Of a stretch of 64,000 nucleotides of DNA, positions 45,567 to 50,299 are shown one piece after another (the stretch's first letter is position 1; every line of letters starts with the position of its first letter). The stretch is from the NCBI GenBank assembly GCA_965140415.1, contig OZ223209.1, positions 5,120,001-5,184,000 of the forward strand, in the 5' to 3' direction. The translations under genes and the position numbers were made by a program. A model generated the notes under the pieces. The model ran no database searches. It saw only the letters and a list, made by a program, of their open reading frames with translations, and was not told the origin of the DNA. Source of the DNA: Myxococcota bacterium (GTDB lineage Bacteria; Myxococcota_A; SURF-8).

Positions 45567-48296
45567 ATGAAAAAAACAATAAGATGGATATTGACGCTTC
45601 AGTTGGTTTTGGCACTCGCCATAATGAGCACCGCCACGGGATGTGGAGGTGACGACGAAACCGTTGATGGAGATATCACCGATGGTGATGTGACGGATGG
45701 TGATACTGTCGATGGCGACACCACGGATGGCGACACCACGGATGGCGACACCACGGACGGTGATGTGGACCCCGCCATGAGCCAGATTCGTGCGCTGCAT
45801 CTGTCACCGGATGCACCCACCGTGGATATTCTAGTCAATGATGACCTGCGCGCCATCGAGGATCTGGCGTTTCAAGACAGCTCGGACTATTTGGATGTCG
45901 ATGCGGGAAGTTATGACTTCGACGTGGTCCCGGCGGATGGAACGATTGGCGACAGTGTACTGGGCATCGATGATCTGGAGCTGATGGCGGACAAAGCCTA
46001 TACGGCGGTGGCCTTTGGAACGCTGGCGAATATCGGTGCTTTGGCGCTGGAAGACGATCTGAGCGATCCGGCGACCGGCAGTTTCCGTGTGCGTGCGATT
46101 CATGCCGCCGACGGTGTGGGTGAAGTGGATATCTGGAACGTGACCGAGGGCGTGACTCCGGCGATCATTTATGAAGACTTCGGTTACGGAGATGTCGGCG
46201 CGGCGTTGGAACTTCCTGCGGGTGAATACTCGCTGGGTTTCGATGTGGATGACGACATGACTCCGGATCTGGTTTTCGACACCGGTGCCCTGCCTGCGGG
46301 CGCGATCATCAACCTGTTCGCAGTGAAAGACGGCGAAGCGGTGTACCTGCTGGCGCAACTTTCCGACGGTACGACCTTGCAGATCGACCCGCGCGGAGCC
46401 CCCGCCATGAGCCAGATTCGTGCGCTGCATCTGTCACCGGATGCACCCACCGTGGATATTCTAGTCAATGATGACCTGCGCGCCATCGAGGATCTGGCGT
46501 TTCAAGACAGCTCGGACTATTTGGATGTCGATGCGGGAAGTTATGACTTCGACGTGGTCCCGGCGGATGGAACGATTGGCGACAGTGTACTGGGCATCGA
46601 TGATCTGGAGCTGATGGCGGACAAAGCCTATACGGCGGTGGCCTTTGGAACGCTGGCGAATATCGGTGCTTTGGCGCTGGAAGACGATCTGAGCGATCCG
46701 GCGACCGGCAGTTTCCGTGTGCGTGCGATTCATGCCGCCGACGGTGTGGGTGAAGTGGATATCTGGAACGTGACCGAGGGCGTGACTCCGGCGATCATTT
46801 ATGAAGACTTCGGTTACGGAGATGTCGGCGCGGCGTTGGAACTTCCTGCGGGTGAATACTCGCTGGGTTTCGATGTGGATGACGACATGACTCCGGATCT
46901 GGTTTTCGACACCGGTGCCCTGCCTGCGGGCGCGATCATCAACCTGTTCGCAGTGAAAGACGGCGAAGCGGTGTACCTGCTGGCGCAACTTTCCGACGGT
47001 ACGACCTTGCAGATCGACCCGCGCGGAGCCCCCGCCATGAGCCAGATTCGTGCGCTGCATCTGTCACCGGATGCACCCACCGTGGATATTCTAGTCAATG
47101 ATGACCTGCGCGCCATCGAGGATCTGGCGTTTCAAGACAGCTCGGACTATTTGGATGTCGATGCGGGAAGTTATGACTTCGACGTGGTCCCGGCGGATGG
47201 AACGATTGGCGACAGTGTACTGGGCATCGATGATCTGGAGCTGATGGCGGACAAAGCCTATACGGCGGTGGCCTTTGGAACGCTGGCGAATATCGGTGCT
47301 TTGGCGCTGGAAGACGATCTGAGCGATCCGGCGACCGGCAGTTTCCGTGTGCGTGCGATTCATGCCGCCGACGGTGTGGGTGAAGTGGATATCTGGAACG
47401 TGACCGAGGGCGTGACTCCGGCGATCATTTATGAAGACTTCGGTTACGGAGATGTCGGCGCGGCGTTGGAACTTCCTGCGGGTGAATACTCGCTGGGTTT
47501 CGATGTGGATGACGACATGACGCCGGATCTGGTTTTCGACACCGGTGCCTTGCCTGCGGGCGCGATTATCAACCTGTTCGCAGTGAAAGACGGCGAAGCG
47601 GTGTACCTGCTGGCGCAGTTGTCTGACGGTACGACCTTGCAGATCGACCCGCGCGGAGCCCCCGCCATGAGCCAGATTCGTGCGCTGCATGTGTCACCGG
47701 ATGCACCCGCCGTGGATATTCTAGTCAATGATGACCTGCGCGCCATCGAGGATCTGGCGTTTCAAGACAGCTCGGACTATCTGGATGTCGATGCGGGAAG
47801 TTATGACTTCGACGTGGTCCCGGCGGATGGAACGATTGGCGACAGTGTACTGGGCATCGATGATCTGGAGCTGATGGCGGACAAAGCCTATACGGCGGTG
47901 GCCTTTGGAACGCTGGCGAATATCGGTGCTTTGGCGCTGGAAGACGATCTGAGCGATCCGGCGACCGGCAGTTTCCGTGTGCGTGCGATTCATGCCGCCG
48001 ACGGTGTGGGTGAAGTGGATATCTGGAACGTGACCGAGGGCGTGACTCCGGCGATCATTTATGAAGACTTCGGTTACGGAGATGTCGGCGCGGCGTTGGA
48101 ACTTCCTGCGGGTGAATACTCGCTGGGTTTCGATGTGGATGACGACATGACGCCGGATCTGGTTTTCGACACCGGTGCCTTGCCTGCGGGCGCGATTATC
48201 AACCTGTTCGCAGTGAAAGACGGCGAAGCGGTGTACCTGCTGGCGCAGTTGTCTGACGGTACGACCTTGCAGATCGACCCGCGCGGAGATATGTAA
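45567..48296 (+). CDS. Lipoprotein with DGD linker and four tandem 210-aa DUF4397-like units
   Basis: AAGGAG RBS, lipobox ATGC, IRALHLSPDAPTVDI and VRAIHAA...VDI motifs in each unit. Confidence 0.88.
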   Translation: MKKTIRWILTLQLVLALAIMSTATGCGGDDETVDGDITDGDVTDGDTVDGDTTDGDTTDGDTTDGDVDPAMSQIRALHLSPDAPTVDILVNDDLRAIEDLAFQDSSDYLDVDAGSYDFDVVPADGTIGDSVLGIDDLELMADKAYTAVAFGTLANIGALALEDDLSDPATGSFRVRAIHAADGVGEVDIWNVTEGVTPAIIYEDFGYGDVGAALELPAGEYSLGFDVDDDMTPDLVFDTGALPAGAIINLFAVKDGEAVYLLAQLSDGTTLQIDPRGAPAMSQIRALHLSPDAPTVDILVNDDLRAIEDLAFQDSSDYLDVDAGSYDFDVVPADGTIGDSVLGIDDLELMADKAYTAVAFGTLANIGALALEDDLSDPATGSFRVRAIHAADGVGEVDIWNVTEGVTPAIIYEDFGYGDVGAALELPAGEYSLGFDVDDDMTPDLVFDTGALPAGAIINLFAVKDGEAVYLLAQLSDGTTLQIDPRGAPAMSQIRALHLSPDAPTVDILVNDDLRAIEDLAFQDSSDYLDVDAGSYDFDVVPADGTIGDSVLGIDDLELMADKAYTAVAFGTLANIGALALEDDLSDPATGSFRVRAIHAADGVGEVDIWNVTEGVTPAIIYEDFGYGDVGAALELPAGEYSLGFDVDDDMTPDLVFDTGALPAGAIINLFAVKDGEAVYLLAQLSDGTTLQIDPRGAPAMSQIRALHVSPDAPAVDILVNDDLRAIEDLAFQDSSDYLDVDAGSYDFDVVPADGTIGDSVLGIDDLELMADKAYTAVAFGTLANIGALALEDDLSDPATGSFRVRAIHAADGVGEVDIWNVTEGVTPAIIYEDFGYGDVGAALELPAGEYSLGFDVDDDMTPDLVFDTGALPAGAIINLFAVKDGEAVYLLAQLSDGTTLQIDPRGDM
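45771..48288 (+). repeat. Four near-identical 630-bp tandem repeats
   Basis: Units begin cccgccatgagccagattcg at 45771, 46401, 47031 and 47661. Confidence 0.97.
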
Positions 48297-48403
48297 AACA
48301 TGGGTTGGCCTGCACGTCGACGTAGTGTTGGTGTGCAGGTCAACCTGAATGAAATCGATCTTTGACAAGAGATTAAACAAAAACAGGTGGAAAGGGTTTA
48401 AAC

Positions 48404-48730
48404 GTTCCGATGGGATCACTGGCCGATTCTCTCCGGAATGACACGTTCATTTCGTTTTTGCTGGCAGTTGTTTGCTCCTGCCGCAACGAGACTATTGCAT
48501 CGGCTCGGCCCCCCCCGTCCCATTGATGCGTCTCCTCTCCTAACGTTCCTAAACTGATCCGGTCAACGGATTAAGTTGAGCGTTCTGCCGTTGCAGGCTC
48601 TGGGCGGCGGGCATTGTCGTCCTGCACTACAGCGATTCAAAACGAGTTGTCTTTCCGGACTCCTCCCACCTGGCGGCCAAAGCCAATCGGAACAACGTGC
48701 GTCCCATTATGGGGCGCACGTATTTTTTTT
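48404..48730 (+). ncRNA. Candidate structured non-coding RNA or structured 3' UTR
   Basis: Nested long-range pairings from 48404/48693 inward, several internal hairpins with G-U pairs on the plus strand, and an intrinsic terminator directly after. Confidence 0.55.
48695..48730 (+). terminator. Intrinsic terminator
   Basis: acgtgcgtccc-attat-ggggcgcacgt then aTTTTTTTT. Confidence 0.88.
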
Positions 48731-48856
48731 GAGAACTTAGTTTGGTGACGGGGAACGGATTGTTTCATGTTACACTGTATACATACGATATGGGAGGAGC
48801 GCTTTCGTGTGGGAACCGATCGTAGCTGACGTGTCGTTGGATTGTTTAGTGAGAGT

Positions 48857-49825
48857 TCACCCCGACGGCCAGCGCTTGAGCGCACGTTCGAATTCTTCGA
48901 ATTGTGAAAACAGGCGCATTTTGGGGATATTCTGAAGTTGCTTTGCCAGTGTTTCCGGCAGACCGACCCAGACTTCAATTTCCGCAGCCAGTCTTTGTAA
49001 ACCACGAAGCAAATCGATGTAATCTTCATCTTGCTCGGGAAGGACGAGACTTAGTACAAGAACGTCGGCTTCTCGCGATCTGATGGAAAAAAGCAAATCC
49101 TCGAAGGGAATATTCGGTCCCAGGTAAATCGGTTCGAACCCGGCCATGGAACCAAGCACGGCGGCGATCAATGCGCCGAGTTCATGGTGCTGACCCGGCG
49201 GCGTCGAAAAGAGCATCCGGGGACCTTCGGGAGCGGGCGTAACGGATTGCAGCAGGATGAGAAGCCTGCGTTTGACCTGTTCGCTGACCAGATGTTCCTG
49301 CGAGACATTCAGTATGGAAGACGCCCAGCGTTCTCCAACTTCATGCAGCAACGGCAGGAAAATCTTATAAATGAGCTCGCGCGGTGAATACAACAGGGAG
49401 GCGCGTGCCAGAAGTCGCTCGGCCTGCGATGCATTGAAATGTTCAATGTATCCGAGGTAGCGCTGGATCAGTCGTTCTTGTTCGCGCTGTGGGTGCTCCA
49501 AAAGAGTGTCTTCCACAGGTTCCTGCGTTTTTGAAGGCGGTACTTTCTTTTCATCTACTTCATCGACGAGTTGCTGTAATTGCGAAAGTGTTTGTTCTGC
49601 AATACTGCCGATGCGATAGCCCTGCTTTGTGGCTTGGGCAAGCAGTTGCAGGCGTTGGACATCCTGCTGGGAATACATGCGGGTATTGCCTTCGGTGCGC
49701 TGAGGATGGATCGCATGATAACGCCGTTCCCAAACGCGAATCGTGTCTGCCGTAAGACCGGTCATCCGAGTGACGAGGCGCATCGGATACATCGCGTTAT
49801 TGCATCTTTTTTCTTCTGATTGCAT
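48857..49825 (-). CDS. MerR-family B12-binding regulator (CarH/LitR-like)
   Basis: MerR HTH (TIRVWERRY..I.P.RTEGNTRMYS), W-x9-EH (WASSILNVSQEH), GQHHELG, YLGPNIP. Confidence 0.88.
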   Translation of the reverse strand: MQSEEKRCNNAMYPMRLVTRMTGLTADTIRVWERRYHAIHPQRTEGNTRMYSQQDVQRLQLLAQATKQGYRIGSIAEQTLSQLQQLVDEVDEKKVPPSKTQEPVEDTLLEHPQREQERLIQRYLGYIEHFNASQAERLLARASLLYSPRELIYKIFLPLLHEVGERWASSILNVSQEHLVSEQVKRRLLILLQSVTPAPEGPRMLFSTPPGQHHELGALIAAVLGSMAGFEPIYLGPNIPFEDLLFSIRSREADVLVLSLVLPEQDEDYIDLLRGLQRLAAEIEVWVGLPETLAKQLQNIPKMRLFSQFEEFERALKRWPSG

Positions 49826-49950
49826 TCTGCTTTCCTGTTTCTGATCCAGAATCGATTGTAACTCAAAATCTGGAAAGTTCCAGTTCTAAAAAGATAGATG
49901 GAATGATTGTCTATAAAAATTCTAAGAAAAAAATATAAAATAATTAATAT

Positions 49951-49972
49951 TATCTGGAATAGATATGGACAC
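49951..49972 (+). promoter_or_regulatory. Putative CarH/LitR-type 11-bp direct repeats
   Basis: Tandem tatctggaata/gatatggacac; the second matches nAnnTnnACAn. Confidence 0.55.
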
Positions 49973-50054
49973 TATCATGTCTAATATACAGAACGACGAA
50001 TTTGAAGCCAAAAAGGCTTCCATGAAATAACAAACTGATCGAAAGGAAAGAGCC

Positions 50055-50216
50055 ATGAAAAACACTCATAAAGCCGCCTCGCCGATGATCTGGATTCGTG
50101 ACACCAAAGGTGAAACCTATGTTTGCCCGGTCGGGGCCGTGAAAGATCCCAAAAATCCCACAGAGGACGAGCTCAAGCTTTGCGTGAACGAGTCCTTCAA
50201 TCCCCAAAACGACTAA
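50055..50216 (+). CDS. 53-aa small protein absent from the ORF track
   Basis: AAGGAAAG RBS; MKNTHKAASPMIWIRDTKGETYVCPVGAVKDPKNPTEDELKLCVNESFNPQND; terminator follows. Confidence 0.75.
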   Translation: MKNTHKAASPMIWIRDTKGETYVCPVGAVKDPKNPTEDELKLCVNESFNPQND

Positions 50217-50236
50217 CCCCATCTCCCCCATCCACA

Positions 50237-50266
50237 AAAAGGCCGTCGGGATTCCGACGGCCTTTT
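50237..50266. terminator. Bidirectional intrinsic terminator
   Basis: aaaa-ggccgtcgg-gatt-ccgacggcc-tttt. Confidence 0.88.
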
Positions 50267-50299
50267 ATCTTGCAATTTGAATCAACTACAACAAATCTC

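Follow-up and report, generated by a model that had tools for sequence, protein, structure and literature searches.

The 560-nt gap between two convergent genes at positions 48297-48856 of a 64,000-nucleotide stretch from a Myxococcota bacterium (GenBank assembly GCA_965140415.1, contig OZ223209.1, positions 5,120,001 to 5,184,000, forward strand; hereafter the window) holds a single-copy, extensively paired element that ends in a strong intrinsic terminator (48404-48730). We read this element as a non-coding RNA of the plus strand, which would be either the long 3' trailer of the preceding DUF4397 lipoprotein gene or a small RNA (sRNA) cut or started from that trailer, and we put the probability of this reading at roughly 0.4. 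Judged by its sequence, it falls into no known family and is a candidate sRNA or 3' untranslated region (3' UTR) element with putative seeds complementary to the Shine-Dalgarno sequence (anti-SD seeds). Its sequence features, predicted fold, terminator, single copy and absent coding signal are directly established, and its parts are as follows.

48404-48693, plus strand: structured core of 290 nt, minimum free energy (MFE) -107.4, z-score -3.47
48404-48458 (5' arm) and 48639-48693 (3' arm), plus strand: rod arms P1-P4, forming an interrupted rod that encloses a multibranch centre
About 48459-48486, 48488-48534, 48542-48586 and 48597-48626, plus strand: inner hairpins of the core in the predicted fold
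48427-48434, plus strand: pyrimidine tract 1, UUCUCUCC, in an internal loop; mean probability of being unpaired 0.64-0.67
48509-48516, plus strand: pyrimidine tract 2, C8, within the loop that caps the second hairpin; mean probability of being unpaired 0.75-0.76
48531-48541, plus strand: pyrimidine tract 3, UCUCCUCUCCU, in a junction linker; mean probability of being unpaired 0.61-0.64
48660-48667, plus strand: pyrimidine tract 4, CUCCUCCC; probability of being unpaired 0.76 for an RNA starting at 48404 and 0.38 for read-through RNA
48695-48730, plus strand: intrinsic terminator with a 12-bp stem (8 G-C pairs, one G-U pair), a 3-nt loop and T8; -22.5 kcal/mol

The argument for a plus-strand RNA begins at its 3' end. 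The T8 run that the first-pass annotation had noticed was confirmed at 48723-48730, after the 12-bp stem, and the distance from the stop codon of the lipoprotein gene to this T-run is 426 nt. We set this distance beside a crude census of terminators, defined by a run of six or more T, a hairpin of -14 kcal/mol or better and a co-oriented upstream open reading frame (ORF) (n = 125). The median distance from stop to T-run in the census was 55 nt, nine of the 125 terminators lay at least 300 nt past the stop, and the 48695-48730 hairpin is the most stable of these nine. Another hairpin stands immediately behind the lipoprotein stop, at 48303-48345. The annotation had argued that it lacks a U-run, so that transcription could read through, and the sequence bears out the missing U-run; our terminator scan did not flag this hairpin as terminator-like. 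It could be either a weak terminator or a protector of a 3' end. Since the strong plus-strand terminator lies 426 nt past the stop and the first hairpin is U-less, plus-strand RNA is expected across the element. The eight other strong terminators, which lie 300-794 nt past the nearest co-oriented ORF of at least 110 codons (G000:C1, the single contig of this genome, positions 392821, 2155145, 5323550, 4635053, 3542964, 2839171, 2722466 and 5901022), are candidate small-gene or sRNA sites in their own right. The features flanking the element are these.

45567-48296, plus strand: DUF4397 lipoprotein gene, 909 aa, four DUF4397 units (Pfam E 6.6e-136, 4 stretches)
48303-48345, plus strand: stable hairpin directly 3' of the lipoprotein stop; its stem measures about 20 bp when 434 nt are folded
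48346-48403, plus strand: A/T-rich spacer containing TTGACA and CAGGTGG
48857-49825, minus strand: MerR-type regulator with B12-binding domains and a CarH/LitR-like architecture (Pfam MerR_1, B12-binding_2 and B12-binding)

The predicted secondary structure agrees in most respects with the one that had been drawn by eye. The long-range helices gttccgat 48404/atcggaac 48686, tggccg 48420/cggcca 48674, tccggaa-t-gaca 48432/tgtc-t-ttccgga 48648 and tcgtttt 48452/aaaacga 48639 are all present as placed and consist of Watson-Crick pairs only, and both the MFE structure and the centroid predicted for 48404-48730 contain P1-P4 together with three inner hairpins. The two halves of a further proposed helix, gcaacg 48483/cgttgc 48589, are also present in the sequence, but the helix itself is disfavoured, with a pair probability of at most 0.03 in every context. 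Compared with its shuffles, 48404-48730 folds well (-131.1 kcal/mol, z-score -4.81, none of 100 shuffles as good), and the 290-nt core without the terminator does so too (none of 200 shuffles as good). The minus strand folds less well, with a z-score of -3.2 when the terminator is included and -2.25 for the core, which was matched by 4 of 200 shuffles. The plus strand, which the annotation preferred, is favoured by the terminator, the z-scores and a strand-specific motif alike.

That motif lies in the pyrimidine tracts. The C-rich tracts, which had been described as complementary to Shine-Dalgarno sequences, are real and are restricted to the plus strand, which has eight anti-SD-like 5-mers against none on the minus strand; a count of eight is reached by 0.33% of 1196 gap-strand windows. 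Tract 4 includes CCUCC, the anti-SD core of the 16S 3' end of this genome (GGAUCACCUCCUUUCU). At least eight anti-SD 5-mers occur on 13 gap-strands, and the present one is the only gap-strand among them with a T-run terminator on the same strand. The core comprises 91 C, 72 G, 77 T and 50 A, corresponding to a GC content of 0.56, a value reached in one of 60 sampled long-gap windows (gap mean 0.465); nearby promoter-bearing intergenic regions have a GC content of 0.36-0.38. We also noticed that GGGAGGAG, the exact complement of tract 4 (48660-48667), stands beyond the terminator, 7 nt ahead of a GTG that opens a 42-codon ORF at 48807-48935 (48792-48935 with the motif included). This ORF overlaps the MerR gene in antisense, at the latter's 3' end.

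The element has no coding signal. The codon log-odds score of the best of its six frames is 0.10, compared with a mean of 0.40 and a 5th percentile of 0.105 for real genes, and 46% of gaps match or exceed it, so the score is typical of non-coding gaps. The small ORFs that had been reported on both strands exist and span 30-54 codons; none of the eight that we looked up was present in a collection of 15 billion proteins. A tblastx comparison of the gap with the whole genome found no similarity to a gene (best E 0.12).

Nor does the element belong to a known RNA family or a repeat. We scanned the window with the Rfam 15 covariance models, including those of 6S RNA, RNase P, tmRNA, the signal recognition particle (SRP) RNA, the cobalamin riboswitch, CsrB/Rsm, RsaE and HEARO, and obtained no match at the gathering score in the 64 kb, in line with the annotation, which had recognised no signature of tmRNA, RNase P, SRP, 6S RNA or a cobalamin riboswitch. 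At E-values up to 10, both strands of 48250-48900 gave only snR77 (18.8 bits, threshold 50) and Glutamine-II (10.3 bits, threshold 33), which is chance level. The genome's 6S RNA lies elsewhere, at G000:C1:1786401-1786581, where RF00013 matches with 73.8 bits, and the element was rejected as a 6S candidate. The genome is a single contig of 5.98 Mb, in which both BLASTN (word size 7) and tblastx find one copy of the element, all other BLASTN matches having E-values of at least 0.78; the many genomic copies that the annotation had named as a possible refutation are thus not there. A covariance model built from the single sequence (R1, 290 positions, 84 pairs) finds only itself in this genome.

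From these observations we infer transcription, a 5' end, processing and target pairing along the following lines. The stretch 48346-48730 would be transcribed on the plus strand as non-coding RNA that ends at the T8 terminator. Most probably it would form the long, structured 3' trailer of the lipoprotein transcript, the simplest source of such RNA, with transcription continuing past the hairpin at 48303-48345 that lacks a U-run. From this trailer an RNA of about 330 nt (about 48395-48730) could then be freed by processing in the single-stranded, A/U-rich spacer. Alternatively, this species might start within the spacer from an unrecognised promoter, which is possible, but unsupported. The spacer does contain a perfect TTGACA at 48362-48367, which has no acceptable -10 hexamer downstream; the start implied by its spacing, at about 48397, matches the point at which the rod takes over the fold. 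Only the shorter species would be expected to form the end-to-end rod. The exposed tracts UUCUCUCC, C8, UCUCCUCUCCU and CUCCUCCC are complementary to ribosome-binding sites of the GGAGG type, so that they could base-pair with target mRNAs around the translation start and repress them, in the manner of the C-rich seeds of RsaE/RoxS or LhrC. A more specific form of this proposal, which we regard as distinctly unlikely, is that a Bradymonadia-like member of the Myxococcota has a genus-specific regulatory RNA some 330 nt long, derived from or encoded beside the 3' terminus of the DUF4397 gene, which at order level is linked to a B12/light-sensing MerR regulator. The long rod of this RNA would offer four anti-SD seeds at once and could sequester the ribosome-binding sites of several mRNAs.

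The surroundings of the element differ among relatives. We compared 60 related genomes, five of the same family and none of the same genus. The protein relatives of the DUF4397 gene carry the names Myxococcota, Myxococcales, Bradymonadia or Deltaproteobacteria. In G008, of the same order, the DUF4397 gene has a single unit, and a MerR/B12 gene begins about 127 nt after it on the same strand; this co-directional pair implies that the two genes are linked and that the MerR gene has the opposite orientation in our genome. In G001 and G003, of the same family, a hairpin stands 15-30 nt past the DUF4397 stop, with a T-rich tail in G001 and an A-run in front of it in G003, and the intergenic stretch is only about 220 nt long. 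These short stretches imply that the long trailer is special to the present genome. The gene past DUF4397 in G001 and G003 is unrelated to the AMP-binding gene of the window, and behind the MerR/B12 orthologues of G008, G034 and G023 further genes follow directly. Other origins for the gap were tried and rejected. A decayed gene was dismissed after the null tblastx result against the genome and a second one against the loci of the relatives (best E 0.83), and the 164-aa upstream ORF does not correspond to the 164-aa ORF behind MerR in G008. For an inversion scar, the inverted repeats flanking the MerR gene are no longer than matches of chance size (13-15 nt). The neighbourhood itself (45567-49825; in G008, locus L018, 454-2472) hints at an envelope protein controlled by light or B12.

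A number of results weigh against a functional plus-strand RNA. Our promoter scan of the plus strand gave zero sigma-70-like sites. The rod is dependent on context: its mean pair probability is about 0.95 only when the 5' end is set at 48395 or later, and falls to about 0.2 for starts between 48297 and 48384 and to 0.01 from 48250, a start that takes in the last part of the coding sequence. When upstream sequence is added, the MFE structure closes via CAGGUGG 48384-48390 and CCACCUG 48666-48672, and the 5' arm is rearranged. The excess of anti-SD motifs is modest as well, as eight 5-mers are also reached in 2.6% of 2000 sequences produced by mononucleotide shuffling of the element, implying that it partly reflects the high C content alone. 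The only RNA library that matched the locus, the metatranscriptome X4, covers 48921-49069, which is 149 nt within the MerR gene. (X4 is a 154-nt contig from a wetland metatranscriptome with one difference from the MerR gene; the organism itself, or one very close to it, may be active in that wetland.)

The same holds for the fold when it is judged by the genome's own gaps. As a background we folded the central 290 nt of 60 random gaps, drawn from 598 gaps of at least 330 nt that lack an ORF of 110 codons. With 15 shuffles each, which makes the values noisy, the z-score of the better strand was -3.1 or lower in 14 of the 60. The two 55-nt arms form a duplex of -41.3 kcal/mol, an energy equalled or bettered by a pair of arms in 17 of 88 similar-sized gaps. 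A second pair of arms of equal duplex energy exists within the gap 48297-48856 itself. The fold is not beyond the background of this genome and is ordinary for its long gaps. The 14 well-folding gaps (G000:C1:719161-719711, locus L083, and 13 others, L084-L096) have z-scores as low as -8.7 on one and -7.7 on the opposite strand, and an Rfam family or a tRNA was found in none of them. Because many long gaps fold well and none of these is a known RNA, z-scores alone are unfit to nominate RNAs here. As a side observation, the 14 gaps may be palindromic repeats or RNAs outside the known families.

Comparison with other genomes adds to this side of the balance. BLASTN against the 40 nearest relatives returned chance matches only (E at least 0.012 over 17-51 nt). 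The covariance model found no homologue in the 60 relatives (best 14.9 bits), none in the nearest 12 under laxer filters (best 11.3 bits) and none at 30 loci adjoining DUF4397 or MerR genes. A scan of metagenomes with the MerR protein produced eight loci, all of at most 40% identity and none from a close relative, and plasmids and phages held no match to the element. With no genome of the same genus in the comparison, the absence of homologues, although counted here against the RNA, is weak evidence either way. As far as these sequences indicate, no conservation of the element reaches beyond the genus; this is often so for sRNAs, and no less would be expected of junk. The proposal in the first-pass annotation of a new sRNA or 3' UTR-derived regulator therefore stands in part, as a reasonable but unproven hypothesis: it withstood the Rfam, shuffling and copy-number checks, but no homologue, plus-strand promoter or unusual fold statistic came to its support.

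Much of this evidence would suit a functionless, lineage-specific spacer left by local rearrangement, with an incidental structure and a T8 hairpin that is simply the distant terminator of the lipoprotein gene. We consider this explanation unlikely, yet the main competitor. It would account for the absence of the element from the 60 relatives, the orientation of the MerR gene relative to G008, the near hairpins and intergenic stretches of only about 220 nt in G001 and G003, the ordinary fold z-score and arm duplex energy, and the dependence of the rod on context. It has more difficulty with the composition of the core: the random spacers of this genome are A/T-rich, whereas the core has a GC content that just one of the 60 gap windows reaches and yet carries no coding signal and no tblastx similarity to the genome's genes. 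The strong strand asymmetry of the pyrimidine motif also speaks against a mere spacer.

The convergent arrangement of the two genes allows for a different role, in which the MerR/B12 and lipoprotein mRNAs have overlapping 3' UTRs, form a duplex of about 400 bp and affect each other's stability. Consistent with this, the MerR gene has no convincing terminator on the minus strand: the sole site, 48706-48688, has seven pairs and the tail ATTGGCTTTG, the main hairpin read on the minus strand contains an A-C mismatch and no U-run, and the minus strand past the hairpin at 48345-48303 reads CAUGUUUUAC. DUF4397 and MerR/B12 genes also adjoin each other in G008. However, the G-U pairs of the internal hairpins favour the plus strand only, and the minus strand folds more weakly (z-score -2.25, as above); we think the proposal improbable.

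The C-rich composition could also point to a Rho-loading (rut) zone that recruits Rho to untranslated read-through RNA and backs up termination, since C-rich, G-poor stretches of about 78 nt are a hallmark of rut sites and the 78 nt from 48477 contain 33 C and 14 G. But rut sites are usually unstructured, this zone is predicted to be partly paired, and a strong intrinsic terminator follows in any case; we therefore hold this idea to be very doubtful.

A relic resembling a miniature inverted-repeat transposable element (MITE), with the 55-nt arms as decayed terminal inverted repeats, is still harder to sustain. The closing helices, being purely Watson-Crick, are equally good as inverted repeats in DNA, and AAC occurs on both flanks as a weak 3-nt repeat; the arms pair over about 33 Watson-Crick pairs, and the flank repeat is limited to this AAC. 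The element is, however, single-copy by BLASTN with word size 7 and by tblastx, its covariance model finds only itself, and plasmids and phages contain nothing like it, making such an origin highly improbable.

A CsrB/RsmZ-like sponge RNA on the minus strand, which would bind and sequester CsrA with its GGA motifs, is a reading to which we attach almost no weight. Read on the minus strand, the core contains 12 GGA and 6 AGGA, placing it in the top 0.6% and 0.25%, respectively, of the 1196 gap-strand windows, and the genome encodes CsrA. Yet csrA adjoins fliW (Pfam FliW, E 1.5e-40), the terminator is on the plus strand, there is no Rfam match to CsrB/Rsm, and the minus strand is predicted to fold into one long irregular rod instead of short hairpins with GGA loops. 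As far as is known, CsrA proteins of the FliW type have FliW as their antagonist, with sponge RNAs playing no such part. In this genome csrA (102 aa) overlaps fliW, which lies downstream, and follows a gene for a PilZ-domain protein (locus L045, 843-2670; G000:C1:762246-764073); as far as we know, the lineage is not known for flagella.

A small-protein or type I toxin gene with a highly structured mRNA, which the annotation had offered as an alternative, has equally little to recommend it: ORFs of 30-54 codons do exist on both strands, and a 38-codon one at 48410-48526 encodes the hydrophobic run FISFLLAVVCSC, but no frame has a codon signal, none of the eight ORFs is in the protein collection, the ATG starts lack a preceding Shine-Dalgarno sequence, the two longest plus-strand ORFs begin with TTG and extend through the terminator, and the longest hydrophobic stretch is 12 residues, when type I toxins have a transmembrane helix of about 18-20 residues.

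The locus is present in contigs of three sequencing runs (X1-X3) from one organism and one study; X2 spans it, X3 has holes at 48289-48398 and 48577-48668, and the pieces listed for X1 end at 48288. No letter differences are listed within the element, where X1 is uninformative. The lipoprotein gene itself contains four tandem 630-nt units (45777-48296) with a protein identity of 99-100%, and their near identity indicates a very recent expansion. The corresponding gene has one unit in G008, two in G001 and four, which have diverged, in G003. In runs X1-X3, contigs end at 48288, and their loose ends continue into the start of a DUF4397 unit, which suggests that the number of copies may vary, or be collapsed in short-read assemblies.

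On the other side of the gap, the region 5' of the MerR gene (49826-50299) is 470 nt long and A/T-rich (GC 0.36-0.38). It contains an imperfect palindrome of 28 nt (49830-49877) that may serve as an operator, a 53-codon ORF at 50055-50216 without a Pfam match, and a perfect 13-bp hairpin at 50237-50266 between A4 and T4, which is likely to be a two-way terminator.

If the plus-strand RNA is real and acts as proposed, it would be the first such RNA in its lineage, far larger than the C-rich sRNAs of Firmicutes, and a first way into post-transcriptional control in a predatory lineage that has received little study. It would also mean that the multi-seed anti-SD strategy of Firmicutes arose elsewhere too, in a much larger scaffold. 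A search of the literature, supplementary files excluded, found no sRNA work on Bradymonadales and only unrelated work for small noncoding RNA in Myxococcota. If the element is not real, it serves as a warning, given that about a quarter of the long gaps in this genome fold at least three standard deviations better than their shuffles.

Finally, we compared the element with known systems. Like the RNA-polymerase-binding rods of 6S and Ms1 RNA, it would join its 5' and 3' ends by a long interrupted helix, and Ms1, at about 300 nt, is near it in size; unlike them, it has a predicted multibranch centre instead of a bubble resembling an open promoter, and it has no match to an Rfam family. With the 3' UTR-derived sRNAs of enterobacteria (CpxQ, SroC, DapZ) it shares its position directly behind a gene, the strand and terminator of that gene and the lack of a recognisable promoter. 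Those sRNAs are 50-100 nt long and use the terminator of their mRNA near the stop, whereas about 430 nt separate stop and terminator here and processing would have to be assumed. The C-rich sRNAs of Firmicutes are about 100 nt long, so the element, at 290-330 nt, is three times longer, and it differs from RsaE/RoxS and LhrC also in its Myxococcota-like host and in having no similarity to them in sequence or to their Rfam models. In design it does resemble these RNAs: RsaE/RoxS and other Rsa RNAs of Staphylococcus and LhrC of Listeria are regulatory RNAs with C-rich UCCC motifs (PMC2790875, PMC4132741). As far as these accounts describe them, the element differs in placing motifs in internal loops and linkers besides an apical loop, and resembles them in its exposed C/U-rich anti-SD motifs, its Rho-independent 3' terminator and its lack of coding capacity. 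Where at least two unpaired C-rich motifs are taken to mark an anti-SD sRNA, the predicted fold of the element presents four.

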